DNA of 63,910 bases, filler included, from 4 parts of 4 records of this genome joined end to end with filler, not necessarily neighbours in it; one strand, 5' to 3'. Shown: positions 27,623 to 63,910, counted from the first letter of the whole stretch. Notes: generated by a model from the letters alone, not told the origin. Numbers and translations are program-made.

Positions 27623-27722
27623 NNNNNNNNNNNNNNNNNNNNNNNNNNNNNNNNNNNNNNNNNNNNTTAATTAATTAANNNNNNNNNNNNNNNNNNNNNN
27701 NNNNNNNNNNNNNNNNNNNNNN
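27623..27722. other. Artificial contig spacer (N44-TTAATTAATTAA-N44)
   Basis: Six-frame-stop linker flanked by N runs; identical copies at 39809-39908 and 58084-58183. Confidence 0.99.
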
Positions 27723-27752
27723 ACAAAACAAACAAACAAACAAACAAACAAA
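27723..27752 (+). repeat. (AAAC)n microsatellite at contig start
   Basis: acaaaacaaacaaacaaacaaacaaacaaa. Confidence 0.9.
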
Positions 27753-29383: not shown

Positions 29384-32223
29384 GCCCACGAACGCAGGCG
29401 CGGCGGTGTCGGAAGGCAGCAGTCCGCCGTTTCGCGAGCACGAGCAATCCCAAGCGCGAAGACCGCCCTCCCCGCAGCACTATGTGCCAACAGCCGATGC
29501 ACGTCAGAGGACTAGCAGTATATTTTTTTCCTGCAAAGCGGCGCACAGCCATGCGCTTTGCACGGAAAAGGCGTCGTACCGCTCAAGTCTGAAGTCGACA
29601 GCCAGCCGAAGACGCGCTGAAAAGAACACGTAAGCAGCCCTGACTTCGGCTCTCCAGCTGCGACGCGAAGAGTGGCGCGCGCGCACACAAACACACACAC
29701 ACACGCTCCAGATGCGATAAGAAAACTTGGGCACACTGAGGCAGGGATTGACGCCGGCGCAGGGCGAGAGGGAGGGGCTCTCGCACAGTCGCCGATACGA
29801 TGAACAACTTTATCTAGTGAAAACTTAGTATACAAATACATGAATTGATCACATCCGGCAGCCAGTCCGCGGCTCACCTCTCGCACCCTGCTGGCCACTG
29901 TCCAGACCCCTTTACTCCGGCGCAGGAACGACAATGCACTTCCGTATCAAAGGATGAAGACCTAAAACAGTCAATCAATCAAACAATAGTAATAATGCTA
30001 GTCGCCAGAATAAAATCCTAGGGCGGAGAGAGGAAAAGGTAATGCCGGAAAGTATCTACAAGCCGCGAGAGACTTGAGTGCGCAGCAGTGTTCGGGTGGC
30101 GCTCTAGGCTGTCAGCGTGCTGTTGCCAGTAACCATCTCTCCCTGAAACAAGCCCAGCGCGAACGCCAGCGGACAAACTCGGCGCCGAACGAAGTGAATG
30201 TGAGCTCGCTTACGCTGCCACAATCCAGGCATTTGTGATTGAAAAACATTTCAAAGACGTGTGTTGCAAAAATATAAAACCTGTCATGCGGCTTGCACCC
30301 GCTAACCCGGAGCAAAGCGCCCAGTTTCTTGCGCAGCCTCGAGCGTGCGTATGCGGCGCAGAGGCCTTGCTCCCGTTTCTGTTCGAGCGCGCAGGGCGAG
30401 CCACGTGAGCTGCCCAGACCTTGGAAGGCAACCCTCCGTGCTGGAAACTTCTTGCACACACGTGGTGTTCGCACCATGCCTGTTTCCTCTGCCAACGCAT
30501 CAGCATCCGTACGGCAATCATTGCCTACCAGGTTAACCATGCATGGCTCTATCTCCAGCTCAGAAGGCTGCGTCGTTACCATACCTTCTCAAGGGACAGA
30601 CCATGGGAACAGGAAAAATATATATCCAATGCCACCCCAGCTACATTCTCCGTTGCACTTTGTCGCGACACAGCCGCTTGATTGCTGAGCACCCGCAATT
30701 GCGCCAACACAGCCAGATGCTTGAACATGGCAATAGTTGCCCCGTACTGCACGGCCCGCCCACCACGCACATCAGATGCCAAAGCAGAACATTGCTTACC
30801 CTAGCAAAAGTAAATGCTTGCACTGTTATTTCCAACCCAGCGTTCGCTGCAGCCTAGCTTCACGCGTACCACAGTGCTTCCAGCTGCGCAACCGTTCTCG
30901 TCTGCGCAACTGTATATAAATATAGCATTTTACTACACAACCGCCGCTATATTTCACAACGGCGCCGCACATTTTTTGCAGGCCCGCCCAACTGACACGC
31001 TCCGTGTCATCAGCAGGGTTTCCAGCGTGTACGGAACCGCCGCTCGATTCGCAACGCCGCCGGACCTGCGCGCCCGAACTGCTGCTGCACGGGCGCTTCG
31101 TACCGCAATCCGCTGCGTACCAGATACGAAACAATTTACTCAATAGCTGTCCATTGAAACCCGTAATTTATTTTCCCACGATTTTCGGCGGCCTTGCAGA
31201 GACCGCTGGTGCGAAGAAACGCGTGCTAGTGTGCCGCCGAGCTGCGCGTAGCACTGGACAGAACCAACGGCGCCGCGAACGCTGAACGCTCGCTCCGAGC
31301 CGATCCGCGCTGCGCCAGGTATGTGTGTGCTGCGCCGGCACCGCCGCCTCGCACGCACTGCGCTGCCCCGACAAGGGGACGGAGGAACATTTGATTTCCT
31401 TGTACCATGCCCATAAATATCACTAGCATAGAGTGCTCCCGTACGTAAGTGCTCCATTTAATCGCTACAGGACCGCACGGTTTGTAAAACGGAGGCGTGG
31501 GTGCACGCGCGCGCGCACATGGGCTGGGACACTCCAGGCTGGGCCTGGTCACGCGCCCGCGCGCCGCGCGGATTAGCCGAGGGCGCACCCGTTCCGCAGG
31601 CCGCAGTGCTGCTCCCTTTCGCGGCACTGGCTCGGCAGGCGAAAGCGCTCGCCTTGCTGCCGATCCCTTCTCCAACGAGCTCGCTTAGAGAGTGTATTTG
31701 TGCTTATAGTGTGCTGATGTACAGCGTTTGCCCGCCAAACTGCGATAGCACTTTTACTTTCCCGGGCGGGCAGCCGGCATCACGCTCGACCGCGCGGCCT
31801 AAGCAGGGTGCGGTCGCTCCAGCTTTCCGGTCACCATGGCGACGCCCAACCTGCCTCGCCAGTGCTTGGCACGCAGGGCCGTCGGCGCATCACTTCCTAC
31901 CACCCTTCCGGCCTGCAATTGCCCCGACTGCGGTACCGTTGTCGTTCGTACAACGTTCTGGCCACGTCTACGAGGTCTGGGCGTCAATCTCGCGCCCAAG
32001 CTCGCGCGTTTCCTCCTACGCGCCTGCGACTGTAATGCGCCACTGCCAGTGCATGCGCTGCAGCCGGGACGTTGCTCCACCGCAAGAACAAGCGCAAACT
32101 GTGTCGAGGCGTCATTCTGCGCTGCGCACAGTTCGCCCGCTTTCCTCACCGGGTGCCGTTCCTGTCCGCGTGCGCCCGCACGCTCGTCCGCACATGCTGC
32201 TGCATTCTTCCATGCAGATCGAC

Positions 32224-35200
32224 ATGCGCCGCAGTGCGTCGCTTGAATCTCCGCGCACTTCGCAAGTCGAGGAAGTCTCGCGCACAGATATGCAGCCTTC
32301 GGAAGAGCCAACGGCCGCAGAGCCGTCGAAGCACGGCGTCTCATTTGCCGCTGCGACAGACAGCCCTGCGGCAGCTGCAGCAGCGTCAGCTTCCGCCACA
32401 AGCTCAACAGGCGTTGTGGAAGCCCCTGCGGCAGGGGCGTACGAAAAGCTTCGTGTGCTTGGCCGAGGTGCTGTAGCCAAAGGTGCGGCGTTCCTCGTTA
32501 CTCTCGCCGGTAGGGCCGCTGACGCCACGGCGCCGGCGGGCACGGAACGCGCCGGCGCCGCGCACCCAAAAAGAACGTCGCGATCCCTCTATCACTCGAA
32601 CAGCCTGCGATACCTCTTTTTTTCTGGCATATGTTGCAAGCGCGTTCGTTTCACAGGCACCCTGCATCGGCACAGCGCCTGCGAGCTGGCGAACGCGCGA
32701 CTCCGAGACACTTGGAAGCCAAGCTCCTTTGCCGAAACCTGTTTCTTTTTTCCCATGTTTTCTGCCATGTGTGCGCCTATTTACCGCGCTGTTTTTTTTT
32801 CCCTCACTCTCGCTATGGAACGACATTTTTATCGGTGCAGTGTACCTCGTGCGAAATCGAAAGACGGGCGAACTGCATGCCATGAAGGTCATGTCGAAGA
32901 AGGAAATGCTGCGAAGGAAGCGCATACATCGTGTTCTCAACGAAAAGGAAACGCTGGCAACCCTCTCGCATCCCTTTGTTATCAACTTTTACGCATCATT
33001 CCAAACAGTTGCGTTTGCTTCTGCCGACAAAACCCGGTAACCCCTTGCGACAATATGTACAGAGCGTCAATGCTCTCAAATTTGCAGTCGAACATGTTTA
33101 TCCCTGGCAGATACGCCTCCCACTTGCAGGCGCTCCTGTCGCACGGGCGCAACCACGAGGAACTTGTGTAAGTAAAGCTCCCCATAGTCTCTCTTACGAC
33201 ATCTCCTAAGACGCCCCCCCCAAACCAAACTGTCCATTTTCGTTTCCTTGCTGCAGGCGGCCAAAATTTACTTCGTCATGGAACACTGCAAAGGTGGTGA
33301 TTTTCTTTCCCTGCTGGAAGATCAGCCGATGGAACGCTTGGACGAGGTGCAGACGAGATTCTACGCCGCCGAAGTGCTCTCCGGGCTCGAGTACATCCAC
33401 AGTATGGTACGGTAGGCCCCCAGGCGATACAGTCCGCATCTGGAACGCCATCCGATCTCCCGCAAGGTACTCGCAGCCTACATGGCGCACCGTGTCCGTA
33501 GACTTGCATATCGTACGCAAGGTACTTGTAGCCTACAAGGAGAATCGTGCCCGCGCGCTCTCGCATCGTCAGTTGCAAGCGCGCGACGAACGTAGCAGTG
33601 CGCCCGCGTGCTCTAGAGGTCACTGTGCCAGCGCTGCGGCGGAATTCCGGTGTAGTGCTGCGCCCAAGACCCGAGCACGGGAAAAAAAGGTGGTAACGAT
33701 AACGCGCAACGCACACGAGGCTGTCTTGCGGCCCGGTACCCAAGCAGCAGAATACTCTTTTCCGACGGCGTAGTTCTGTGAAAGATTGCATTGGCTCTTT
33801 TTTCTCTGTATTATTTCGGGTGTGTTGTTTGTTTGTTTGCTTGTTTTGTTTGTTTGTGTGTTTGTTTGTCGTTGGTGTTATTCTGGATCGCCAAATCTGC
33901 GATGTACGCCTTTGACATGGGCGCGGCTCGCGCAACGTTTGTGTCGCCACCATTGGCATTCCTGACAATCGCCCAGCAGTGATCCGCATGCGATAAGCGT
34001 TCGTTGTCCTCCGGATTTGGGGAGCGCGCACTCCCGCGACTGCACAAACTCTGCGCAGCTCTTCGCGAATTCCTCCATCGCCGCTAGGGGGTAGCCCCGC
34101 AGTCTTGGTTGCCCAGGTGGGTTTCCTGACCCTCGCGCGCCCTTGCTAGTTGGCAACCGGGCCCCCCCCTTGGTCTCGACTAGCTGACCCTATGGTTTCC
34201 CTCCCGTCACATCGTCCACGCGCGCCTCCCCCTCGTTGCTCCGCAGGGTTACATCCACCGCGACCTGAAGCCGGAGAATATCCTCGTCACTGGCGATGGG
34301 CATCTTCGCATTACGGACTTCGACGTTTCCACCCGCTTAGATACGTCCTCCAAGGCGCTGCTGCATCCGAGCCACCTGCGCCTGACAAGCAACGCATCAG
34401 ACAAGCGCCGCAAGGGCCGAGAAGAGCGAGAACTCAAGTATTCGCTCGTGGGGACACCGCAGTACATCGCGCCCGAGGTTATCAACGGCGAAGGACACGG
34501 ACGCGACGTGGACTGGTGGTCGCTCGGGATCCTTATCTTTGAAATGCTCTACGGATTTACCCCGTTTCAGGCCAAGGGAATGATGAAGACGTTTATGCAG
34601 ATCCAAGCCGGAAAATTCGAGTTCCCGGCCGAGCCCGCCGTCAGCAATGAGTGCAAGGATGTGATACGCCGCCTGCTTGTCGTCGATCCAGCCCAGCGTC
34701 TTGGGCACGTTGGAGGAGCCGAAGAAATCAAGTCGCACGCCTTTTTCGCGGGGGTCCACTTTGACAAGCTTGCCAATACGCAGGCGCCGTGCAAACCCTT
34801 TGTCCCGGAAGACCCCAAGCAGGGAGCGGACAGTGACGATGACACCGACGACTCGTTCGCGCGCGATGACGACGAACTTGCCCAGGATGGAAAGGATGAT
34901 CCGTTTCTGTTTTACAATTTCAACTTCTCCAAGCTCGTTCAAAATGTCAAGGAAATGCTCGGCGCGGACGACGATGACCAGGAGAACGCCACCGAACTCA
35001 AGACAATCGACCGCCCTGCCCCAAACAAGGTGTGGAGCGTCCAGGCGCGGCGTAGCATTGCGCGCAGCAAAGAATGTGCGCATAGTATGATTGCGTCTGT
35101 GCCTACTATGCGCCCCAGTCGGCATCCGCGCGAGTTCCGTGGTTCGCAGTACCCGGGATTCCGCAAAGCGCGTGCTCCGCACCGCAGCCCTTTCTTCTGC

Positions 35201-37992
35201 TCGCCTTCACACGGATGCGCCCGGTCGGTATCGTGGCTGCTGCTCCATGTAGAACTTTCGACTCGTCCACAAGCTCGACAAGATGCGCGATCAGCTTTCA
35301 GAAGCCACGGTGCGCCAGGAGCGCCTGGAAAAGGACAAGCGCGTCCTTGCCGAGGTACGTAGCTGCATTGTCTCAACCTACGCAGCTCGGGCCGCTTTCC
35401 CTTGCGCCTGTCCAACATGCAGCGTCGTATCTCCGCGCCTTTGGGGAGCTACTGTGGGTTGCCGCGCGCAGCGCACAGTGCACGTACTTGCGTGCCTCTA
35501 TCTCGAAGTGAGGTCTGGTAGCGAGCATGCTGGCAATGGCATACCGTCAGCTGGCCCAGAGAACGACAACAGAGTCGGGGCATCGAATTGTTTGACCTGC
35601 TGTCTCCTCACACTGCATCTCTATCTCTTCGTGCCCGAGTGCAGGAGCTCAGCGCGCTCAACCGCGTTGTCGACAATATGAAACGATGCCGCACCCTGGA
35701 CGCCGTGTACTCCTTGCACGCTGTCCCTTCCAGCGCCAACGCCGCCGCCCTACCGCCGGGCCGCCGCGGCCCGCTCACGCTAGATTCATCCAGCGCCGTG
35801 CAGCAGCGAGATGAAATGTCCGCTGTCGCCGTCGAGGCAGCCCCAACGCGCGGGTCCATGGGCGCGCCGCTCGCTCGCCCAGGCAGGAAAGTCAGCGCCG
35901 CCAGCGACGGCGCGGTGTCGCGCACGTCCGCCGCGGCAATCGAGGTCGGGCGCGACAACTACAGGCGGTACGTGGGTCGCGTCATAGGAGCACGATGCGG
36001 CAGTGTGAGCAGCTGCGTGAGATTCATGTCGAACGACGGGTCGCTCCAGACGGAACTATTCTTCTTTTGTGGGGCCGGAAGCGCACCGCAAGATCACAGA
36101 GCTCCTCTGCATGCCGCTGATACCGGACGCCGCGCTGTGCCCCTGCCCTTTTTTTTACCGGCGGTATGATTCCCTATGTTCTTGCAGAATCATGGAGGCC
36201 ACAGTCACACAGCTTCTCGATTCGGCACTAGCGTCAACGACGCCCGGTACACCGGCAAGCACAACCGCATGGGTGCACGACAAGGCCGTTGATGGCCTCG
36301 TCATCGAGCGCAGGTGCGCGGCAATTCAGAACAATGCACTTCACACGTCCTTTGCATACCTGCGTGCCCGCTGTGACAGAGGTGCAGCAGCGTTGGAGCG
36401 ATGCGTGGATGCAGCCATAGCGAAACGTTTCCTCTTTGGCCTGCTTGTCGTGCAGAGCCCCATTGCTGCCCTCTGCTGCAGCGTGGCGTCCGCCCCGCAT
36501 GCCTCTGCGTCCCATGACGCGGAAGCCTCTCCGCCCTCCTTGTCGGAAAGTTTGTGCAACAAGAGCGGCGCGCGTGGAAGTTATGGTGTTCTCGTCCGCG
36601 TGCGCCAGCTGTCTCCGAGGCCTCCCTCTCATGCTCTCTCGCCGTTCGCGCCGTTCGCGCCGTTAACAGAGACGACGAAGACGTTCCGTGCATGAGAGCG
36701 CACGTGTACGTTCGCGCGGCGCCGCAACGTGTATTCGAGCTCGTAAAGCGGGTGACGTCGGCCCGCGAAGCGCTCGCAGGTCAGGCAGCCTCCGTGGGGA
36801 TCGAAAAGGAAATCGTGGAAGAGCTCGATGCATCTGCATGCATCGTCCGCCTTCTCTACAACTCCAAGAGCGCGCTTGTAGCGAACCGCGATTTTTGCGT
36901 ACTGCACGCAGCCTTTGCCGCCAGTGCTAGCGCGGCAGCCGCGGATGCGCTGGGTGACGAGAGCTCCGACAACACGTACCTGAAGATGATGTGCTCTGTC
37001 GCCCACGAGTCGCTGCCCGATGTCCAGGGCTGCGTCCGCGGCTTTCTATTCCCGTCAGGCTTCGTCATTCGAAGTGCTACCGACGCGGAGCGCGCAGTCC
37101 TCCGCATGGATCCCGCCGCTGACCAGGCGCGCATGCTGCAGCGCGAGGAGGCGCTCCTCTTCGACTCACCGTTCCCGCGAGAGAATGCTGCACGCGCCCC
37201 GCTTCTGCCCACGCACGCGGCGCTGGCAGCGCCTACTCCTGGCGACGCGGCAGCTGCTCCACACCGCGCCCAGCGGAAACTGCGCGACAACGACGTCCAG
37301 GATATGGTGTACAACGGGCGCGCAAGGTATGTCCTGCACCGCACCCGTACAAAATGCGTCAGGGAGGTGCTGCCCCAGCTACCTGCAGCTGCACTGGGCG
37401 CAAAGTGCTCTGCTGGCCCGAGAAAGGCGATCTTGACGAAATGCTGATCACCGTCACGGACGCGCGCTGTTCTCCTCCCTGCGGCGCCCTGTGCGCATGC
37501 AGCAATGTCTCCGATCGCACGCCTCTCTTCAGTGACACAGTCGACGAGTCGAGAGGAACACTCGACAGCGCTGTTGGTGCAGACACTCGCCTTCGCAGCG
37601 ACTCTGACGTGCGCGCGAGTGCAGAATCCAACGCGTTCGAAATCACCTTCCGGACCATCGGAAGAGGGCTGCGAAATCTTCTCGGTATCACCGAAGATGA
37701 CGACGATGAGAGCGAGAATTCGGCGCCGGTGCACGACGACTACGACGGCCCCATCACGCGCGTCACGTTTGTGCTCAAATGCGATCTGATGGGCTGGATT
37801 CCGGCGTTCTTCGCAAAGGATACCATGGAGGCGCAGCTTTCAGTGCTTCTCGGCATTCGCGATATTGCAGAGGAAAATGAAGCGCGCGCGCGCGCGTTCT
37901 CCTCGGCCTCCGCGCCCGTCGACTTTGAAGTCGATCCGGAAAAGATTGGCCGCGACGTACCTGCCCTTCGAAATGGAGAGGCTTGGGAGTGA
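32224..37992 (+). CDS. Eukaryotic AGC Ser/Thr kinase (DFD-type, Fpk1/Kin82/phototropin-like kinase domain) fused to coiled coil and C-terminal START domain; 9 coding exons
   Basis: Hand-spliced exons 32224-32482, 32841-33007, 33257-33406, 34247-35029, 35253-35354, 35645-35967, 36188-36313, 36670-37326, 37503-37992, all GT-AG with matching phases. Reads LGRGAVAKVYLV..AMKVM..HPF..FVMEHC..HRDLKPEN..DFDVS..VGTPQYIAPE..DWWSLG; then START-like WVHDKAVDGLVIER..RDFCVL..SVAHESLP..VRG..SGFVI..TRVTFVLKCDLMGWIP. Confidence 0.85.
33819..33870 (+). repeat. Imperfect (GTTT)n microsatellite inside a kinase intron
   Basis: tgttgtttgtttgtttgcttgttttgtttgtttgtgtgtttgtttgtc. Confidence 0.8.
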
Positions 37993-38824
37993 GCGCCGCT
38001 GCACGGCAATGAACTCGTGAGCGGCTGCTGCTTCAATGGCGATCCGGCCATGAGCATTACGGTGCGCAAAATATCTACGTCAATGGATGGCCTGTGCCGT
38101 GCTGAGAGCTGTGAATTTCGATACTGTACGTTGTTCTTTGTACAGAGAAACTTATGCTGGGGCTCTTCGTCGGCGCTGGCGTCGTCGTCGTCGTCGTGCT
38201 ACCCGTTCCCAGCTCGTCGCGCAGGTGCTGTGCCTTGTGGGTTTGGTTCACCCTGCTTGCCATTGTTATTTTTTCCGAATATGTTTTCATCGATTTATTG
38301 TATACTCTGTGTACCTTCTTTTTTTTTCATCGCAAGGCCCCTTCGGGTATTTCTCTCTGTATGCATACATGGCAGTGGTGTATATGCGAGTATGTGTGCA
38401 AGCCTGGTGCGCACACAAGGGCGTGGCAAGCCAAAGGGACAGACCGCACACGAGAGCCCACGAAAACGAAACACCGCCACAAGCTCCCCGGCGAATCCTT
38501 TTCGCAAGCGATGTGCGCGCATATTGCGCAATGTGGAGACTCGCGGGTTCCCCCGCACGCAACGCGAAGGCACAAAGAGGCGATAGCGTACAAAATCCGG
38601 AAACAGAATGGTAGAGCACAAGTTCACTCACGGACGCCGTTGTCCGGCCATCTTCTCAACTCGCACCGTGTCCCAGAAGTATAAAAGACGTAGCCCATAC
38701 GAAGCTCCTCCAAAGACACTGTTGCAGTAACGCGCGACACTCTGCCCGCACAAGCACACGCACACACAGCGGGGCCCGGCCTTTCTCATCTGTGCGCCCC
38801 AGCGCCCCCGCCGGGATGCAACTG

Positions 38825-39748
38825 CTACGCATTGCTCCCGTAACTGGCCTTCGCCGGCGCAGCTTCCTCGCCGTACATCTTGTCCATACGCGCATGCTAC
38901 ATCGCATCCACAGAAGCGAAAAGAAAAGAGTAGCATAAAGCGTACGCAGAAGTCGACCCGTCAAGATAAATACGACAGCCATGTACAGAGCACCACGGAG
39001 CACACAGAATGTTCACAGCGCAGCGCTGGTGCACAGCGACCCCGCGCGCAAGCAGGCCGAGATCTGACTGCACACCAGCGGTTGCCACGAACGCAGGCAA
39101 ACGCACCGGGAGGATTGGTTGCGACATCGCACCTCGCCGGTCATACCGGCGGCGCCACCGCGCAATAGCGACTACCGCAGCAATAGCAATTGTCATAGAC
39201 ACAATAATACCGATAAAATGAGGGGTAGATACACCGAGCACTGTGTCGGTATTACCGCGCGGTGCTTGCGGGCACGACGCATCGCACGTCGAGCACGGGC
39301 ACGAATCCTGCGTTGTGGACAACATGGATCGCAAGTGGCAAGCGTTCACGCACCGTCGTCAGGTGTTCCCCAGGCGCAAAATACAAAGGCCTAAGTCGCG
39401 GAAAATGCAACGCCTGACAACAATTATTGACACGAAACCAACAGGATCCGCAAGGGCATCACGAAAAAGGCGCGCCCATATCGACAGATCCCGCGTCGCA
39501 CGTCCACGGTCGAGTACAGGCGCGTGCTTCTCGGGCAACCAGGCGACGGCGAAGGTTATCGTCGGGGAAACACCCGAGCGCACCTTGCAGCTTCGAACAT
39601 TGGCGCCGAGGTCGAAACAATCAGGAAAAGATTTATCCACATACACCATCTTCAGGTCGTATTCTGGATTCTGCTGCGCCTGAAAGTCAAAGAACCCCCG
39701 GCTCGTGTGGAAGTAGTCCTTGACCGTGGCTCCACTCTCGTACATGAT
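38825..39748 (-). CDS. 3' part of a single-pass membrane protein with a Cys-rich NPC1 N-terminal-domain-like ectodomain end
   Basis: Phase-0 exons 39748-39584, 39307-39107, 38896-38825: ...FFDFQAQQNPEYDLKMVY...ANVRSCK|DSCPCSTCDASCP...FIGIIVSMTIAIAAVVAIA-RWRRR...QPILP|HARMDK...SNA*; upstream exons lie beyond the contig end. Confidence 0.6.
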
Positions 39749-39808: not shown

Positions 39809-39908
39809 NNNNNNNNNNNNNNNNNNNNNNNNNNNNNNNNNNNNNNNNNNNNTTAATTAATTAANNNNNNNNNNNNNNNNNNNNNNNNNNNNNNNNNNNN
39901 NNNNNNNN
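39809..39908. other. Artificial contig spacer
   Basis: N44-TTAATTAATTAA-N44; the next contig starts in a poly-A run (39909-39929). Confidence 0.99.
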
Positions 39909-41928: not shown

Positions 41929-44306
41929 ATGGACGAGCTCAAAAAGCGTCGTCTGGCCTTTCAGCGGCGAATGATCAACGTATGTGCTTTTGGAATGTCG
42001 TTTTCATCACTCTTGGTCGTTACGAGAACGCCAATGGGCGGGTGTTTCGAGCTCGTAGTTCGCCTGCGCTGCCCCACTTCTCGCGTGAAGGTGTCGCTTT
42101 ATCCAGGTGGCTCCGCGCACGGCTGTACACCGCATGCGCGGGCCCGCTCCGACCAAATACGTAGTCATGCAAGAATAAGACGTCCGTATAATTTGCAAAG
42201 ATTTCGCCTGCGCGCAGCCAGGATGCGCAGTACGCTTCGTGCGCAGGCTGCGCACGACTCGAGCCCAAGCAGGCGCCTCGCTTACCTGGCAGACACTCAC
42301 TCGCACGCGGCGGCGCGTGCGCACTACCGCGTGCGCCTGTGAAATGACGCGCTTCCTGCTGCGCCGTTTGCAGATGAACAAGCTGACGGACCAGGGAATG
42401 CGGGTATCTGAAAATAAGCGCATGAAAGAGGAGAAGAAGCGAGAACAGGACATCAGTGCGCGGGTGCGCGCGCCAGCCGTCACTGTATCCCGCATTCTGT
42501 TTCAGATCGTCCAGTTCCTCTCGTCAACGCGGCAGCCGGCCTCCGCGGCAACACTGCAGGCAGCGCTTGGCATCGATATGGGCAACGAAAACCTCCTCCG
42601 ACTGCTACAGAAGAATCCCAAAGTCTTGTACAATACCAGGGATAAAACCTATGAAATTCGTCGAAAGCATGTCGACGTTGTTGACTCCGAGTACGTGCGC
42701 GCGTCGGTGAGGGGCTGCATGGCGCAGAGGCTCGTGCGGCACCTCTTCGCTTTACTCGGCCACGCGGAGACGGTGCTTTCCTGTCGCTTCCCCCTGATCG
42801 TTTTCGCGATTTCTTATCAGAATGAGCCACCATCGTGCTCCTAGCGCTCGTATGCCACTAGAAATACCCATGGGAAAGTGGAAGAGAGTCGCTGATGTCT
42901 TCACCTTTGTGCGCGCGTGCTTCTTACACTGCGCGTGTTTGCGTGCCGATGTACGTGCGGATTCGCCGCAAACCCGTGCGCGCGGAGCAGCTCGCTGCTG
43001 GAGAAGCTCGAATCGGTCGGCGGAGGCGTTCCTCTCGATGAACTAGAAGAGGCATACGTTGGTGCAAAGAAAGATGTCGAGGCTCTGGAGGCGCAAGGCT
43101 TCGTGAAGCGGGTGAAGAATGCGGGCTCGCGCCGAGATGTCGTCTTCTTGTGGGAAGGTACGGCGCTCCGTGTCCGGCTGTTCATTCTCCCAATTCTGCT
43201 CTCCCATGGATGAAGCACTGCAGTACATATTTGCAGCAGTGTATCTGAATGCGGGTAGCTCTCTCCACGTTTGAGAAAGGAGAATCGCCAGATGCGGAGA
43301 GAGCCCTGCACCTAAAATGTAGGATAAAAGGCCGAGCCACTGTCCGGATCAGTTCGGGACTTCCGGCGTAGCTATATGTACTGCAACCCCCCTCTTCCGC
43401 GCAAAGTCGAGGCGTTGCATGTGTGAGGGCGATAGAATCAATGATGCTGGTAGTGCATTTGTTTGTATGCTTTCTGCTCCGACGAAGCTGGTGTGAAATG
43501 AATTCCACCAAATATGCTGTACGAGTACTGCCACCAGTATCTTTATTCTTCGCCAATGTTCGTGCATTCGTACCTTTTCAGAGGACATGGATTGGGTAAG
43601 CGCGGTTGTACGATAGAGAATTAACTGTAACCATGCCATCTACCGCTATGCAGGAAAAGGTGGGCGCTTCGGTCGGCCATGTCGGTGCTTGGCGGTCGTC
43701 TTTGCGCCATGCGTCCTCTTGCATTCCGCGCGATGCGCAACAGGTCTCCAGGCACGATTGTCGTACGATCTTCGCTGTTTTCTGTATACAGCTTCCCTGG
43801 TCAGGATATTGTCAATGATATGTTTTCTGGTACTGCTTTCTACGCAATGCAGAGGGAGACCGTATCGTTTCTGTGGCGGACGAGGCGGTGCGCGCGCTGC
43901 TCACGGAGATCGAGTTTCCGAAGACCAGCGAGAGCGCCGTATCGATTCTGCGCGAAAATAATAAGCGCGAGGTCCAGACGCTGGACGTGTTTATCCAGGA
44001 GAGTGAAGAGGGCGGTATGTTGGCGTTCGGCACGGGCCTTCGTGCAGTGGCGCGTCCACTCACTCGTGCACTGCGCGAAGGGCGTCTCCACGAGGAGAAC
44101 GTGCGAGGCGGCCGCTCGGCTGTGCTTGCGACAGGGCGTGGGGCGCGGCGTCTCTCCTCCACCTCACTTCGCCCTCCCCCCCCCCGTGTGCCCTGCCTGT
44201 CGCAGACGATGGCCGGAAACGGAAGCGATCACGGCGTCCGACGAAGCTTACCAATACGCACATTGACCTCGAGGCGATGGAGAAGCGTGTTGCGTACAAG
44301 GAGTAG
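41929..44306 (+). CDS. Transcription initiation factor IIE beta subunit (TFA2/GTF2E2-like), 5 exons
   Basis: Kozak GCCGCCATGG; exons 41929-41979, 42374-42690, 42991-43157, 43853-44014, 44206-44306 with matching phases; winged helix ..LQKNPKV.Y..; GGVPLDELEEAY; C-terminal RKRKRSRRPTKLTNTHI. Confidence 0.85.
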
Positions 44307-44755: not shown

Positions 44756-47700
44756 TCACTCGTCCACACGCCGCCGCTTCGCTCCTGGAAGCTGCTGGAA
44801 CATCTCCTTGATGTCGGCGGCCGTTACGGTCTGGGCGGGGGCGCACGCAGCAAGAATTTCCGGCAGAAAACCAGCAGAGCAAAAAAAAAGGCAGAAGAGT
44901 GTCAACGTAGTCGCAAATACGTCTCTGCGAGATCATGGGATTCGGGATCGGCCTTGCAGCTACCTTCGGCGCGCGAATCAGTCTCGCCCTCCCCGCAAAA
45001 CACCCGGGACCACGCGTCCCCCGGAAAGCAATGCGCCAACGCACGGCTCTGACGCCCAAGGACACAAATCGCGCAAGCACTGGTCTCCATATCAATAGCG
45101 CGCACGTCTGCTCCTGGCGCGAAGTAGTGCTAATCCGATCAGCTGCGCCTGCTTGCATTGCTCTACCAAACACTACAAGAGCACTCGCCCGGGGAGCCCC
45201 TTCCCTCCCTACGCCCGTTAGTGGGCAAGGGAAAAAAAGAGCGCACCCGATTTTCCGCTGCAATCTTCCCCAGCGAATTCCGCACCGCCGTGCTCATCTC
45301 GTGAAAAGCAGTCGCGGCTTCCATTAGCTGAACTCGCGACTGCACGGCGCACACGCACATCGAGCAGCAATCACCCCGCGGCATAGAACGACACAGCAAA
45401 TGGTTCGTGAGGCAGGTGCGCACAAAAAAAGCTTCTCTGCACGTGTGCATTTCAGAACATAGTAGGGTACGATGGGACAAACAACCGCCGGAATCGCAGA
45501 GTAGGATGCATGCGCCGCATCTCCGAGAAGACATGGTGAAATCATTAGCTGCGGCCACCGTGTAGCCGGCGAGAGAATCCACCAGGCGCAGCAACGAGCA
45601 GCGCAACCAACACAGACCCTCCTCGGCTTAGGCAACCATATACCACAGCACCATGTCCACAAATACTCGCACAGCAATCAAGCCCAGTCTCAAAAAATAA
45701 AGGCACAAGAAGCAGACAACCACGTCGCGTACCAGCGGGGAGTCCTCGATCGCACGCCGCTCCGCTGCGGCGACGCGCTCGCTGTGCAGCAGCCGCGCGC
45801 GCGTTTCGTGGGCGAGGAGCGTATCGCTCTGATCCAGCAGAAAAGCAACCTTTTGCGCAGCAATTTCCAGCCTACGCGAGTACGCCCAGATTGGTCATAC
45901 GCAAAACGAAACACACGAAACAGGTTCAGATGATCCAATGTTCCCGCCAGCAACACCAAGCGAAATACACAAAATGCGAGAGCTCCAGGAATAGCAACAA
46001 CACGTCGCACATCGCGCGAAGCCGCAAAAGGCATTTCGCACCATAAAACGAAACGCCGAGACATCCGCAAAATATATGTATCAACGGTCCAGTTCAGCGC
46101 TACCAAGATATGTGGCATACCTTGCAGTTGCGTCGCGCGCAAATGCCTCTCGTGCGTCCCGGCTGAAAAACGCTGGCAGCTCTGTAGATGGCGCCACAGC
46201 GGTGCTCTCGCAGCTTTGATCCTTCTTGCCGCCTGCATCGGCGACAAAGGGCGAGCGAGTGGCGATCGCGTCGACTTGATTTCCACCATCGCCCGGCATG
46301 TTTGGTCTCGCTTCGCCTGTTTCAATGGCAGTCGAGACCGTTTCTCCAGAGCTACGCTGCGTATCGTCGTCTGCTGTCCCTGCCGCAACCGTGTCTGAGC
46401 TATCGCCAGTGTTCTCGCTGTCTTTCCTCATCGCGTCCGCCGCAGCAATCTGCACGGCATGCGCGCGAAGACTTGGAAGACCCGTCATACAGCTCGAGCA
46501 AATGAACTCTTCGTACGAATCCGCATGCGGAACGAGCGCCGGATTCATTCCAAGATGCTCAACATGATACCAGTCCTCGCACACAATGCATTGCAGCATT
46601 TCCTCATCTGGACGTAACGAAGTGGACCAACGAAGTGCAGCACCGCAGAATACGCCAGTGAAGCAAACGACAAACCAAAGACATGCGTTGATCAGTACAT
46701 AAATTATTTGTCCGCGCATACGGGCGAATCACTCAGACGACCTTCGCCACAGCTTCACGCGCGCGCAACAGCGTAAGCAGCCGAAACAAGAGCGCCGTAG
46801 ACTGGCGCAGCGCTTTTCCACAGGCGCAGCCATCTAGCAGGCGCACGAGAAGCGGCGAAACAAAGGCGGGACGCTTCGGCTCGCGCATGCGACAATACTA
46901 TAGGGAACAATAGGTAGAGAAACAAACTCTTACATTTCTACCTACAAGCGAGAAAATCAACGTACGAAAGAGGCAGCCACACAAGCGGCTTCTATTCACC
47001 CGAGCAAACGACGATACGCAGCTCGACCTCGCCGCGGTAGGTCACCCCATTGCGGGGCACAAACGCCCATTCTTTCTTTGAGCGGAAGAGGGACATCCCA
47101 CTTCTACTCCTACGACCTATATATGCTTCGAAACCTGAGGGAACACAGCTCCAATATTCTGAAGCGACTGAAAAGTACACAAGATAAACAAGGACAGACG
47201 CGCCTAACCCGACTAGAAGCGAAGACTGCTCAGCACCGGCGCCGCTTGCTACCAGAGCCACAACGCCCAGACGTCGACCAGCAAATAGCCAGCGGCTCGA
47301 GATACGTACTCTCCAGCCGGCAATCGGGATCGGGGTACGGGCGATCGCATACACAATATCGGCCTCGGAAATTGTGGTTGTAGCGATTCCCTTCGTTGAC
47401 AACGGCTTCTTTCGCACCACTCGGATCAAACTTGCAGTGCCCTCCGCGCACTGTGCCGCAGTCGCAGCTGCGCGACAAGAACAGCAGAAGCACGATGACG
47501 GTGAAGATATCAATCAAACTTTCCCAATGCATGCCAGTAATCGGTTCGCAGTATTCATTCTCAAGCCATTTGCAATGTGAGGTCTTAGGTGTGAATAAGT
47601 GTCCACGAAAGGCTGAAACATGGCTCAAAAGCGCTCTCATTGCTCGCGCCATCATTGACTCGGCCGCAACACTTGGGAACAGCATTCGGAAACAAGAAAT

Positions 47701-58083: not shown

Positions 58084-58183
58084 NNNNNNNNNNNNNNNNN
58101 NNNNNNNNNNNNNNNNNNNNNNNNNNNTTAATTAATTAANNNNNNNNNNNNNNNNNNNNNNNNNNNNNNNNNNNNNNNNNNNN
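58084..58183. other. Artificial contig spacer
   Basis: N44-TTAATTAATTAA-N44. Confidence 0.99.
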
Positions 58184-59939
58184 ATAAGAGACGCCTCTGC
58201 GCCTTTCCAGGCGGCGTCGCTACCGACACAGTGCACCAGGGCCGCCCATGCGCTCTCGAGCATAGCGATGCCGTCCTCCTGGCCTGATGCGCCGTCTGGC
58301 ACTGGAAAGGCCGCCGGATCCGTGACTTCGCAGGCAACGTCCAGCCCGGCGAATATGGATTCGACAGCCTCTCTCGCGTCGTTACCCTTGGAAAGCGATG
58401 ATTGCGACACGGCACCGCACGCATCGCCGTCGTGGCGACCGCCTCCTTGCGCCGGTGACCGGCCGCTGCTCGCGTGCGCGTCGCCACCGCTCAACACCTG
58501 CGCAGTCGCACGTCCGCACGCGGACTGAATCGCCGGTGTGGCAAACATGCCGCAAAGCTCCGCCCGATCTGACGCACAGCGGATAGCGCGCAGAAGCCGT
58601 GCAAGACTGCGCGGAGAATTGCGACGCGCCAAGGCCGCTGCGCGCACAGCAGCGGCGATTGCATCGGGCGCTCGCCGCGCGAGCCACGCGCCCGCTCGCC
58701 GCGCTAGCGATTTGTCCCGCCGTAGCAGGATGTGCAACACCGCAAGATCGAGCGCCTGCCCCGCCACCGAATTCTCAGAGCGATCATCGAAAAGCCATAC
58801 ACTAGCATAGTCTAGGGCAGCACGGGCAGAAAGAACATCGGCGCGAGAGAGGATCGCGCACACCGCACTACTCGCCGCTTCGCGCGCCTGGGGCGTTGGC
58901 AGCGAGCCACCGGGCGCGCCAGCAGCAGGCCCAGCAAGCGTCGCCGCCCACGCCAAGGCAGCAGCTCCGACGTCGCCTCCGCGGCGTCCAACGATCGCGC
59001 AGTGTGCCGCAAGGACAGAGGCTGGAACACGAACGCACACAACAGCAAGCGCCCCTGCAGCTGCAGCTGCAAGATCGCCGTCTGCGTCATTCGCAGCAGG
59101 CACAAGCGCGGCTACGGCCCCGCGCGCGCACGCGGCGAGTGCGTCGCCGAGCACGCCGACGTGCGTGACGAGAAGATGGCACGCACGCCGCCGCACTTGC
59201 GTAGTGCCATGCGCGAACACCTGCAGTATCCCCGACACAAGAAGCTCGCCGCATCCAAATGAATCCAACTGCCCAACCAACGATGCGGGTGACACGCTCG
59301 ACACAACCGCGTCGTACGCGTCGAGCGCTTGCATGTGCACACCCGACGGATATACGACGTGCAGGCACTGCTCAAGCCAGCGCGCCAGCGCCACCTGCGC
59401 AACAGCAACAGCGCGATCCCACGCACAACGCATTCCCTTTAGCATGTGTGATTCTGCACATATATGCATATGATGCACAAAATCAAAAATGGGCAGACTA
59501 CACGCTCGGTAAACGACTGCGCGGCGCTGGCGAAACCGTGCTGTGCGCTTGGAGCCGGGGTAGTTTCCCTGTCGAGCACGACAGTCGAGCTGACGAGAAC
59601 ACGCTTATGGGAAGACCGCGCAAAGAACGAAACTCGCAAGTATACGGCACGCGAGAGCGAGGATTGGAAGATTTCGCCTCTACGCGGCGGGCATAAAATT
59701 TATAAAAAGAGTCAATGGGAAGACTCAATCGCAGATCGGCACAAAAGGCGCAACAGAAAGGCCACGACAGGTCCGGAAACGCACTCACAACATACCGGTT
59801 GCGGCAGAGCTGGCAGCGGAGCGTGCGCGCGCAGCGCCGACGACAGCCTCTGCAGGCACGTCACCAGGTCGGCCCACTCGCGCGCGCGTTCAAATGTGCC
59901 CAGCGCCACGATCACAGCAGCTGCCCCATGGTCTGGCAT
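58184..59939 (-). CDS. Dopey/DOP1 family protein, N-terminal domain (3' end runs off contig)
   Basis: Exon 59939-59796 ALGTFERAREWADLVTCLQRL; exon from 59394 LARWLEQCLHVVYPSGVHMQALDAY and LLRRDKSLARRAGAWL, matching Dopey_N motifs (EWADL, QCLxPxLPSGVH, LRRDxSLxRR). Confidence 0.8.
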
Positions 59940-60216: not shown

Positions 60217-63200
60217 ATGCGGAGGCTCCGCAATGCGCAGTGGCACGTTTGGAGAACGCTGGCAACGCAGCGACCCGCACATATTCCAGTCCACCGCTAT
60301 CGATCACCCGCGAAACTCGAAGAGGTGCGTGTGCTCGCAACCGTCGCCGAGCTGGCGCACTTTCCCCAAGAGCACCTCTGTTGCTGACCGCGCCAGCGTC
60401 CGCGGTGTGCGTTTGTCCTTTGCTACTCTCAAAGCAAAAGGGAAGCATCATGTGGTTCCGTGGCTTTGGAAAGGATCTGTACCAACCTGTGTTTTCGATA
60501 CGTGCTGAATAAGAATGAATCGCGGATGGCTGTGCCGGCGAGTCCTTGCGTCGACTGTGGGCTAGACGACGCGCGCCGCGCTGTGTCTTGAGTTCCCACG
60601 GGCGAGCTCCAAGTGGCATGGAGCGGGCGCTGTCTACAGCCAACTTCACCTCTTTCCGTCTCGTCCTATCGGGAAAGCGTCCAACTGACCAATTTTTTCA
60701 CGGCTTTTTCGCTTCTCGTCGGTAATTTGTGCGCTCCTTTTTTGCGCCCTCTGCCACTGGTTTGTGCAGGCGCAAGACCGTGCTCTTCTTCGAAAGGTGA
60801 TCAAGAACGCGGCGCGCGCCTCCACGGAAGAAGTTGTGCAGAGCCTCCGCGCTGCGTCGCGTCTTGGCGTCGCGCCCGACGCCTTGCGCGCGGTATGGCT
60901 CGCGCAGCGTGGCGTATTCACGCGTGACAGATCATTATCGAATCTGTTTACATCGTTGATGGCACGTTCAGGCGATACGGAAATCTTGCACAGTACCGGA
61001 ACGGCTCCCGAGTATGTCGCAGAGGCTGTCATACGCAGCTGCACAAAGAGCGCCGACCTGGCTCGCACCATCGCCGGCGTGGCAGAGAAGGCACAGCGGG
61101 CGGCGCTTGCGCTTCAGGCAGAGGCACTGCAGCTTCTTACAAGAGAAGAAGCACGCGCTTTATATCAAGATATTGATAAGAGCATACGATCCGTCGCGAG
61201 ATTCCCGTGTGGGGTTCCTGCGGTTTCTGCTGTCCTGCGCACCTTCCGCCCATCCCTGGCGGAGAGCGAGGCGCTCCTGCGCACTCTCGCTTCCGAGGTA
61301 CGGGCGGTTGCGGCGCTTGCCCTGCTTGCCGATGGCGGCGATGTACAGCACGCGAGATCACAACTCGCCAGTGCAGCAGCAGCCGTTGCACGTTCGTTAC
61401 AATTTGCACCTCGAGGAAGCTGTATTCGCGCGGCTGCTGTGCTCTACGGAAGTGCGGCGGAGGCGCGCAGTGCGCAGCTAGTGCAAGCAATCGACGACGC
61501 GACGGGAAATCGGTCTGCCGGCGCACCACAGGCCTCTTTATCACAAGCTACCTCGTCAGCACATCTGCAAAGCATGTACGATAGTTCTACGTGGGAGGAA
61601 ACAACTGATCGAATACCATATGATTATATAGAGCGAATCAACGACGCTGGAAATTGGCAAAGCTCGAAAAGCAGCGATATGCCGTCGTCAACCGGCGGCA
61701 GCATGCAGTCGCATTCTGCCGTGCTCCACCCGGCTCAGGCCGAAAGTCGCGCTGAGGCCGATCACGTAGCGCGCACCTCGTGTCAACGTGACGCACATAG
61801 TGCTCGTGACGAAATATTTACGGACGCAGCATTTGCTGCGAGGCTTCATGCACTGGATCGATGCGGCCGCGGTGCGGACGCGTTGGCGGCAGCGCTCGCA
61901 GCGGGCACTGCGCTGACAGCGCACGCTGCGTCCGCGGCGCTGCGCCACTGCGTCAGGTCCCGCAACACAGAAGCTGCCGCGCAGATAATTGCGACATTGT
62001 GTTCAACAGGCAACCTTGACCGGTGTGCTGCCGAGGCAGCAGCACGCGTGGCGCATATTGCGCGCAGCTCCGACCTTGCCGCTGAGGTCGTCAGCGCGGT
62101 GGCGCAGCTCCGCATCGAGCCGACCGACCGGCTCGTGTCGGGGCTCGCCGGCGCCATCGCGCGAACAGCTTCTCCTGCGGCCGCCGCGACTCTTTTGCTT
62201 ACCGCTGCTCCAGAAAGTCCAATCAGCAAGTCTCTCCGTAGCATCTCCCGTAACCAACCGAGCTCTACACAGGCAGAGCTCAGCTCTCGCGTGTCGGATT
62301 CTCTTGTCGACGAGCTGGCGCGCCTGCTTTCTCGCGCACCCGGCTGTCTCGGCGCGCACACAGCAGCTGCTGTGCTCACGGCGGCCGTGGAGGACCGCCG
62401 CGCAGCAGCCGATGTGCGCCAGGCGCTCACCGAGCTCCGCCACGTCATCCCGATGACCCGGACGCTCTACCAGGTACGTGCACCCACGTCGCTGATCCGC
62501 ACGACTCCGACGGCGCGCACCTTGTAACTCGGGGTTTGGCCTGCCCTGTTGGCACCAACGCCCACGCTCTGCCGCGCGCCCAAGGCCGCGGTCGCGCCCG
62601 CTTGCCACCCGAGGAGATGGCGCGCGGGGAAAGCCGCGGCCCCGTCCCCGTTTGGGTGACAGCAAAGCCATCTCGATGTGGCGCAGAGCGTGATTCTTCC
62701 GGTCCAGCTCTCGTTTTAGCTTTCCATCGCCTTGCGTAGACATCCTCAAAGTAGACCAGCGGTATTTACTTGGTCCCATGTCGCGCGCGTGTAGAAAGTG
62801 ATGATTCCTGGTCGCTGCACTGGTTTTCTGCGTTGCTGCTGCGGCATCACCCTGAGCTAGGCACCCACTGACTCTCAAGGGTAACTTTGCCTTGTTTTGT
62901 ACCTGGTAACATAGCTTTATGGCGAACCATAGTTTGCATTATTTGGTTGTTGCTGCACTGTTCCGTATTGCGTTGCTCGCGCACATTCGCGAGCGACGTG
63001 GGAAATCTGATCGAATCCGGCGCTTTTTTTTGGGGGGGACACGTGCTCACGCAGTGACGCGGTGCCCGATACCCCGCTGCTCAGGTCCCAGCACCCGCGT
63101 ACACGCTCATATTCAGTTCCCTGTCGCATGCCGCATGCGACTAAACTATACTGCAGGTTGATATAGCGTCGCGAAGTGGGTATGGTACCGCTATCCCGGC

Positions 63201-63613
63201 CGTCGTCGCGCTGGAGGACATGGAAGAAGACGGGGCGTTTGTTACCGTGGCGTCCGTTAACGCCGCGCTCCAGGCCTGCGCTCGCTCCGGGGACGCAGAA
63301 CAGGCGGAGAAGCTGCTCGCTAAGATTGACGAGTCACCATTTCTTTCTGCGACCCCGCGCAGCATCATGCTTGCAGTGGATGCATGTGTGCGGGGGAAGT
63401 GTCCGCGTCGCGCCATCGCGATCTTCCGGCGCGCCGTGCCCGCAGCCGCAGATCCCGGCAGCCGCGCGTGGAGCCACGTGTTTGCTCTCGCAGTCCAAGC
63501 GTACATGCAAGTTGGGAATCCCGTCGAAGCGCGCGCGCTGGTGGAACGCCTCTTGCATTCAGGAGATGCGCAGCATGTGTTGCGATCGTCCTTACTAGCT
63601 GCCAGGGCTCTCG
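60217..63613 (+). CDS. Ala-rich pentatricopeptide-repeat (PPR)-like protein with probable organellar presequence (continues beyond window)
   Basis: Exons 60217-60324 (MRRLRNAQWHVWRTLATQR..., Arg-rich, almost no acidic residues), 60770-62473, 63157-63613; PPR-like VTVASVNAALQACARSGDAEQAEKLLAKI and SIMLAVDACVRGKCPRRAIAIF. Confidence 0.65.
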
Positions 63614-63910
63614 GTAAGTTGTCCGTTCACCGTAGTCCGCATATTACGGCGAAAGGCAGATCGTGTCTGTTTTGCCGGCCAGGCATGACCTTGAGAGCTC
63701 GTACCCACGTCGTTCTCCCCTCCTTCTGGCCGCTCATGACGAAATGCAAGCGCATTCGTCTCCCCCCTTCTACATTGATATTATAGCTGTACTCTCGTCT
63801 TCTGCCACCGTGTGGTAGAATGAAAATTTTCCATTTTGTGAAACCGTAGCAGCGATTCCACAAGAAGGGACTCGATCCTTCGCTCTCCGTATCACTGCGG
63901 CAGATGCGGT

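Follow-up and report, generated by a model that had tools for sequence, protein, structure and literature searches.

The gene considered here occupies 32224-37992 on the plus strand of a 63,910-base window (the whole stretch of DNA analysed) and encodes, in one reading frame, a protein kinase of the AGC type and a lipid-binding domain of the START type. The window is four contigs joined, not one locus, and the gene lies on contig 2 (27723-39808; 12,086 bp, GC 58%). Its nine exons splice into 3057 nt (1018 codons and TGA) of open reading frame (ORF) without internal stop; all eight introns (358, 249, 840, 223, 290, 220, 356 and 176 nt, in order) are bounded by GT..AG, and the phases are consistent throughout. 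The exons, their untranslated flanks and the parts of the protein that they encode are as follows.

31022-31318, plus strand: 5' untranslated region (UTR) exon; transcript contig piece 31022-31315, joined by GT..AG (cut +3) to 32218
32218-32482, plus strand: exon 1; coding sequence from ATG 32224; Ala/Ser-rich N-terminus; first part of the glycine loop (GRGAVA)
32841-33007, plus strand: exon 2; kinase N-lobe with AMK lysine motif; Pkinase match; both junctions confirmed by the transcript contig
33257-33406, plus strand: exon 3; kinase hinge and alpha-D/E region; Pkinase match; transcript contig
34247-35029, plus strand: exon 4; kinase C-lobe, 35-residue insert and AGC-type tail with acidic stretch; Pkinase match
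Motifs within exon 4, plus strand: HRDLKPEN; DFD 34316-34324; APE 34469-34477; FYNF 34910-34921
35253-35354, plus strand: exon 5; first part of the heptad-repeat segment; junctions from the transcript contig
35645-35967, plus strand: exon 6; heptad segment to about 35695, then Ala/Ser/Arg-rich linker
36188-36313, plus strand: exon 7; predicted N-terminal part of START; profile alignment from residue 619, at 36258
36670-37326, plus strand: exon 8; START core to residue 778, at 37093, then the first part of a low-complexity insert of about 160 residues
37503-37992, plus strand: exon 9; insert to 37749, then at 37750-37890 the final strands of START and its C-terminal helix, followed by a short tail and TGA 37990-37992
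37993-38896, plus strand: 3' UTR, the overlapping 3' end of a convergent neighbour, or both; the transcript contig continues to 38896

The gene is represented in the public run X1 by one assembled contig, 5096 nt long at a depth of 13.6, which agrees letter for letter with the window in the eight pieces shown and has ten joints when placed on it. Once the cut offsets are taken into account, eight of the joints coincide with all the predicted introns, including the 35029/35253, 35354/35645 and 35967/36188 junctions at which the first-pass annotation of this DNA had proposed to look for a single transcript; its model of nine exons with consistent phases, read as one ORF from one spliced transcript, stands in full. 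The ninth joint is an additional GT..AG intron in the 5' UTR (31318/32218), and the tenth, a CT..AC joint at 38896/39107, is assigned to a convergent neighbour on the minus strand. Since a contig from which nine GT..AG introns are missing cannot be genomic DNA, the gene must be transcribed, with splicing at the predicted sites, and both its exon structure and its single spliced RNA are direct observations. An in-frame stop lies 14 codons before ATG 32224 in the spliced 5' UTR, and the 303 nt of 5' UTR seen contain no upstream ATG, which together support the proposed start at 32224; position 31022 is the first base of the transcript contig only, and the true transcript start may be further upstream. 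A (TTTG)n/(CAAA)n microsatellite is found at 33817-33876 inside intron 3 and also at 27723-27752, the start of contig 2; the former was skipped as a repeat when the transcript data were placed on the window.

The Pfam Pkinase profile (PF00069) is matched collinearly over exons 2, 3 and 4 (profile positions 16-68, 72-117 and 120-263), with E-values of 3.6e-07, 6.3e-08 and 4.2e-35, respectively; against a cut-off of 31.7 bits, exon 4 scores 121.9 and exon 3 32.8 bits, and exon 2, taken alone, falls just under it at 30.3 bits. The catalytic motifs AMK (residues 100-102), HRDLKPEN (196-203), DFD (216-218) and APE (267-269) are intact, so nothing suggests a pseudokinase, and the kinase is apparently catalytically competent as judged from these motifs. 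The glycine loop, GRGAVA at residue 80, has Ala in place of the third Gly. Its activation segment carries a basic insert of 35 residues (221-255), such that the span from DFD to APE is 51 residues as against a median of 26 in 25 ribosomal S6 kinase (RSK) rows; the short-insert DFD kinases P0032, P0087 and P0020 have spans of 46-49. The T-loop reads K-Y-S-L-V-G-T-P-Q-Y, with Ser at the usual T-loop position before VGT, and a hydrophobic motif of the FxxF form (FYNF, 414-417) lies in a tail whose acidic character had been noted previously and is borne out by the composition of residues 361-453 (20% Asp). Exon 4 gave no match to Pfam Pkinase_C (PF00433) at E<=1. Among structures in the PDB, the best 60 of 199 relatives at E<=1e-20 are Cbk1, PKA, MRCK, RSK and STK38/NDR, all of which we take to be AGC kinases. 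The long database relatives that score best (120 rows, 33-51% identity) comprise RSKs, phototropins of green algae and AGCVIII kinases of plants. All 49 phototropin rows have the DFD motif, as do 28 of the 29 plant AGCVIII rows, whereas DFG stands in its place in each of the 25 RSK rows that could be resolved; a single RSK row and a single plant row gave no clear reading at this position. The earlier description of the kinase as AGC-type, carrying DFD and an insert in its activation segment, is thus upheld by the Pkinase matches, the motif at residue 216, the 35-residue insert and the AGC relatives in the PDB.

The more specific assignment to the plant AGCVIII kinases is not sustained. In the available text of PMC3499706 this family is characterized by DFD(LS), an insertion of 36-118 residues between the Mg loop and the T-loop, an activation segment of 55-137 residues, a T-loop of the form SxSFVGTxEY and an AEP motif before the T-loop. 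Our kinase has DFD, followed by V-S, whereas its insert of 35 and its activation segment of 54 residues (216-269) are each one residue short, its T-loop keeps the Ser, VGT and Y and lacks the first Ser, the F and the E, and no AEP motif precedes it. Phylogenetic analysis under LG+C20 was restricted to 40 chosen rows with an RSK root (39 of the 120 relatives were kept, the long-branched P0001 being among those dropped). In this tree the kinase falls inside a clade of all 30 DFD rows (support 100/99) as sister (99/96) to the other 29, among which P0020 groups with two fungal kinases, followed by the phototropins with plant AGCVIII; it lies outside the 26-row clade of phototropins and plant kinases (99/97). 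We conclude from these comparisons that it is a DFD-type AGC kinase related to, and predicted to lie outside, the plant AGCVIII/phototropin family, and that it may at best branch deepest within the DFD-type AGC lineage.

The C-terminal half was identified by a different route. An exhaustive phmmer search with the exon-8 core against 1.84 billion representatives found seven proteins at E<=1e-3 (best 1.4e-10), every one of which carries Pfam START above its cut-off and none of which has a kinase; identity of the exon-8 core to these relatives is 15-32%. A profile made from their 22 START domains gives the spliced protein 79.5 bits, aligning residues 651-778 with profile positions 5-126 and residues 940-982 with positions 127-169, so that two pieces in the order of the profile are separated by some 160 inserted residues (779-938), which span the exon 8/9 junction. 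With an N-terminally extended profile (18 domains) the alignment runs unbroken across the exon 7/8 junction from residue 619 to 776 and is taken up again at 939-985. Exon 9 alone scores 14.9 bits, the maximum in 2000 shuffles being 7.4. Exon 8 had 30 matches in the ESM Atlas, all of them belonging to START clusters and the highest scoring 0.94. When the exon-8 core was modelled with AlphaFold2 from an eight-row alignment (pLDDT 73.8, pTM 0.65), a Foldseek search of the PDB returned 49 matches at E<=1e-3; those listed were without exception START domains, among them those of StarD13, ACOT11, STARD3/4/5/10, StAR, CERT and PCTP; template-modelling scores normalized to the query were 0.51-0.64, and identity to solved START domains was 10-23%. 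The columns invariant in the family (D74, C76, S109, G124 and G130) are kept in the exon-8 core. The START identification made by the first-pass annotation is thereby confirmed by relatives, profile and fold, though not by Pfam alone. From the alignments and the model, the domain would span exons 7-9 (approximately residues 597-985) and appears complete in its elements, divergent and interrupted by a large loop insert; that both domains and the intact catalytic motifs are present in the one protein is observed directly.

A word-indexed search with exon 8 among longer proteins returned nothing. In the search of PDB sequences with exons 8 and 9, a match to chalcone synthase at E 0.23 was dismissed as chance, and exon 9 gave nothing. 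The closest START relatives (P0121, P0124 and P0126; 1272-1377 residues) have five tandem START domains each and also touch Pfam DUF3074, and another of the relatives, P0125, has a Myb DNA-binding domain alongside its START domains.

Between the kinase tail and the START domain, residues 456-504 contain neither Pro nor Gly and have L, I, V or M at 10 of 14 a/d heptad positions, a score reached by 8 of 10000 shuffles; the short coiled coil proposed earlier is thus supported, at the level of sequence periodicity. The Ala/Arg/Ser-rich linker that follows has no Pfam match, the N-terminus is Ala/Ser-rich and disordered, and large low-complexity inserts occur throughout the 1018 residues. No motif for membrane contact (FFAT, PH or a transmembrane segment) was found by Pfam in any exon. 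We are highly confident of the resulting order of the protein: a disordered N-terminus, the AGC DFD kinase, the acidic tail, a heptad helix of about 50 residues, the linker and the START domain.

A protein described as a 'kinase-START' protein is already on record, namely WKS1/Yr36 of wheat (Fu et al., 2009, cited in PMC6170490). The parts of PMC6170490 available to us describe its kinase as non-RD, liken it to WAK5, PTO and the kinases of pattern-recognition receptors, and place the protein in the Triticeae only. By that description WKS1 resembles the present protein in having an N-terminal Ser/Thr kinase and a C-terminal START domain in one polypeptide, and in the idea of a lipid-binding domain that modulates a kinase. 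It differs in the kinase itself, which in our protein is RD (HRDLKPEN), of the AGC type, and equipped with DFD, the insert, a putative AGC tail and the predicted coiled coil; the profile of a non-RD, receptor-like kinase with START confined to the Triticeae is not that of our protein. An RD kinase of the AGC type set against a non-RD kinase argues, as far as WKS1 is known from this description, for independent fusions, which are not orthologues and do not form one family. The first-pass annotation knew of no described family with this architecture and held that one would count against its proposal. In the light of the available text on WKS1, novelty can no longer be claimed for kinase-START proteins as such and is retained for the combination of START with an AGC kinase, for which our searches of open-access text, covering AGC and AGCVIII kinases, found no report; an AGC protein described from Leishmania is a lipocalin-PX-FYVE-AGC protein, not a START protein.

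The phototropins and the plant AGCVIII kinases (D6PK, PID, KIPK and UCN) are the best-scoring long relatives of the kinase (36-51% identity); like it, they have DFD, extra residues inserted between subdomains VII and VIII and a T-loop of the Ser-x-VGT form, and its putative tail has the FxxF motif that they carry. Phototropin further resembles our protein in that a sensor-type domain binding a small molecule is fused to the kinase; it differs in that the sensor is an N-terminal LOV domain, whereas the accessory domain here is a C-terminal START. P0087 and P0108, short-insert kinases with DFD and the only fungal ones of that type among the rows, are together with P0020 (48-49% identity) among the rows nearest to our kinase, and in the LG+C20 tree these two are closer to the phototropin/AGCVIII rows than our kinase is; that they are Fpk1-like is a guess on our part. 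To our knowledge, Fpk1 has no START domain. According to the available text of PMC7385178, no yeast kinases come closer to the kinase domain of phototropin than Fpk1 and Fpk2, and Chlamydomonas phototropin can substitute for these flippase kinases in yeast (PMC7385178); the likeness of Fpk1/Fpk2 (Kin82) to our kinase is drawn from description, not from the sequence of Fpk1 itself. On the START side, the best structural matches to the exon-8 model include CERT (PH-START), StarD13/DLC2 (RhoGAP-START) and ACOT11 (thioesterase-START), in which START is fused, as is common for this domain, to catalytic or targeting domains, in none of them to a protein kinase, and at 10-23% identity to our protein.

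Searches for the same architecture were made among proteins, metagenomes and prokaryote assemblies. PF01852 is not recorded for any of the 120 best long relatives of the kinase, and when residues 455-1018 were compared with them by blastp the best E-value was 0.29, the C-terminal half being present in none. A metagenome scan with the START core yielded 553 pattern matches and no relative; the corresponding scan with exon 4 yielded 546 kinase relatives, and the 80 kept (all at 27-45% identity; 488 kb of loci) contained no START-like ORF by the START profile. Four loci from a scan of prokaryote genomes with the START core were rejected as chance (matches of 24-25 residues; only 29-39 residues by tblastn and no START or kinase profile match).

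The rest of the window gives the genomic setting. The four contigs are separated by spacers at 27623-27722, 39809-39908 and 58084-58183, and features are not to be read across these points; the first spacer reads N44-TTAATTAATTAA-N44 and has stops in all six frames, and the other two likewise consist of two runs of 44 N placed 12 bases apart. Contigs 2, 3 and 4 look eukaryotic from their interrupted exons and recognizable domains (TFIIE-beta, PHD, PPR/TPR and Dopey). Contig 1 (1-27622) is of bacterial type, with intronless genes arranged back-to-back, and its Pfam domains include ApbE, sulfatase, iPGM, M23 and S41 peptidases, MFS and DUF6478; it also encodes an ABC transporter with a cNMP-binding domain, AccD-like, FolC-like and AFG1/ZapE-like proteins, an esterase and a pyridine-nucleotide disulphide oxidoreductase. 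The assembly is therefore mixed, a bacterial contig having been co-assembled with eukaryotic ones. One prokaryote genome (G001, 4.5 Mb) matched the bacterial contig only, the kinase-START gene finding no match in it. The last 60 bases of contig 1 resemble the 3' half of a cut tRNA; ARAGORN found no complete tRNA in the window. Among 134 further ORFs on the eukaryotic contigs, Pfam recognized nothing beyond TFIIE-beta, PHD, PPR/TPR and a few DUFs, the remaining long ORFs being mostly without a match. The convergent neighbour, whose ORFs have no Pfam match, has a transcript that meets or overlaps that of the kinase-START gene at the 3' UTR of the latter, within the same assembled contig, and a loose contig end at 39309 points to a further neighbour exon beyond. 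The neighbouring features are as follows.

38896-39309, minus strand: convergent neighbour gene, from the CT..AC joint (minus-strand GT..AG intron 38897-39106)
42179-43210, plus strand: exons of a TFIIE-beta homologue (TFIIE_beta and TFA2 winged helix 2; Pfam)
46084-46728, minus strand: exons of a PHD-finger protein (Pfam)
58186-59604, minus strand: exons of a protein with a Dopey N-terminal domain (Pfam)
63145-63783, plus strand: exons of a PPR/TPR protein (Pfam)

The best explanation of the locus is one real, transcribed eukaryotic gene for a signalling protein of the cytosol, 1018 residues long. The helix-grip pocket of a START domain takes up a single lipid, the solved examples containing ceramide, myristate, cholesterol or lutein, and phosphatidylcholine, and AGC kinases are switched through interactions of the T-loop and the hydrophobic motif. 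By analogy with these systems, we give an even chance that the START domain regulates or targets the kinase in dependence on lipid, and the case for the architecture and such regulation or targeting taken together is just as finely balanced. In outline, the START domain would bind one membrane lipid, a sterol, a phospholipid or a ceramide-type ligand; ligand-dependent conformation or membrane docking would set the place and strength of kinase action; the kinase, probably as a coiled-coil dimer, would then phosphorylate membrane-associated substrates, so that lipid composition is read out as phosphorylation. A further parallel may be the insertion domain of the plant AGCVIII kinases, which brings these kinases to the plasma membrane and has phosphoinositides and phosphatidic acid as ligands, according to the available text of PMC3499706. 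A bolder reading, less likely than not, is of a lipid-gated AGC kinase in which occupancy of the START pocket by a specific membrane lipid might switch a phototropin/Fpk1-like kinase on or off, and through which a protist could sense its lipid composition directly and correct it by way of phosphorylated transporters such as P4-ATPase flippases, the fusion having arisen independently of wheat kinase-START. Flippases as the actual substrates are improbable; flippases or other transporters are suggested as targets only by the kinship of the kinase with phototropin and Fpk1-like kinases.

Several observations weigh against a lipid-regulated kinase of this kind. On exon 8 alone Pfam START (PF01852) reached E 0.014 and 15.2 bits against a cut-off of 22 bits (profile positions 97-158), and exons 7 and 9 singly gave no Pfam match at E<=1, so that of the two hidden Markov model checks proposed in the first-pass annotation the one for Pkinase succeeded over exons 2-4 and the one for START remained sub-threshold; phmmer searches of PDB sequences with exons 8 and 9 found no START, and the best ESM Atlas score of the exon-9 part was 0.87 (below 0.9), with no common family. 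Only the exon-8 part was modelled, about 70% of the domain, lacking the cavity and the lid helix, and with an insert of 160 residues and the overall divergence the pocket could have been lost. The kinship of the kinase with phototropin and Fpk1-like kinases appears to depend on the tree model: the LG+C20 tree retains this part of the earlier proposal, and a quick LG+G4 tree of 121 rows does not, placing our kinase as a long branch on the RSK side (with a warning of long-branch attraction from the tree tool), and the approximately unbiased (AU) test rejects a single DFD clade at p 8.2e-09. On the transcript side there is one assembled contig, from one run the RNA status of which is a guess, and the same contig runs into the convergent neighbour, indicating that contigs of this run can merge overlapping transcripts. 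The searches made found no AGC kinase with START that could be an orthologue, so conservation cannot be used as an argument for function; the libraries under-sample protists, and the absence of an orthologue is for this reason weak evidence. Finally, the regulatory logic, that is to say lipid binding, kinase activity and substrate, would follow from analogy only.

Of the other explanations, the one that we rate on a par with lipid gating, and hold no less tentatively, is that START serves as a targeting or lipid-transfer module and not as a switch, docking the protein at a membrane or contact site or shuttling lipid, with the kinase under conventional T-loop and hydrophobic-motif regulation and acting on local substrates or on START and its Ser-rich insert. 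CERT-type START proteins are controlled by phosphorylation. The domain evidence for this explanation is the same as for lipid sensing; the normal AGC regulatory sites, the Ser before VGT and FxxF, have been kept, and the closest START relatives are stand-alone or tandem proteins (five repeats) with no signalling domain, which is more like lipid handling than sensing. Present evidence, however, fits targeting and allosteric gating alike, and a docking function finds no counterpart in a FFAT motif, a PH domain or a transmembrane segment recognized by Pfam.

It is unlikely that the START-like domain is degenerate and binds no lipid, serving instead as a protein-protein interaction or autoinhibitory module. 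The low identity to the seven relatives and to the solved STARTs, the sub-threshold Pfam score and the insert of 160 residues within the domain would fit such a loss, but the invariant columns have been kept and both halves of the domain are collinear with the profile; low-complexity inserts are moreover found protein-wide, so that this one says little about loss of function. Least probable by a wide margin is that the kinase and START halves are mainly separate products of internal promoters or alternative splicing, the fused contig being a minor read-through or an assembly join. The dependence on one de Bruijn contig, from one run and merged with the convergent neighbour, speaks for caution here, and WKS1 reportedly has several transcript variants, but the halves are linked by spliced GT..AG junctions (exons 4-5, 5-6, 6-7 and 7-8), which can be made only from one pre-mRNA, the frame is open across the eight junctions with no stop after the kinase, and the START profile alignment itself crosses junction 7/8.

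The gene is thus real and expressed, and its product is an AGC-type rather than a receptor-like kinase-START protein, a fusion that is apparently lineage-restricted. The weight of the finding is limited by the failure of our searches to find orthologues and by the derivation of the lipid-sensor role from analogy. The PIN and ABCB auxin carriers of plants and the lipid flippases of yeast are membrane transporters controlled by AGC kinases of the phototropin/Fpk1 type, which read the state of the membrane in a mostly indirect way. If the lipid-gated reading is true, the kinase-START fusion would be a compact and testable case of direct coupling from lipid to phosphorylation, and could offer a lipid-responsive kinase module for engineering. 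The fusion also represents a second, independent origin of a design so far seen only in a wheat resistance gene, which could help to explain why the pairing is useful, and a lipid-gated AGC kinase would in functional terms be a 'phototropin for lipids'.

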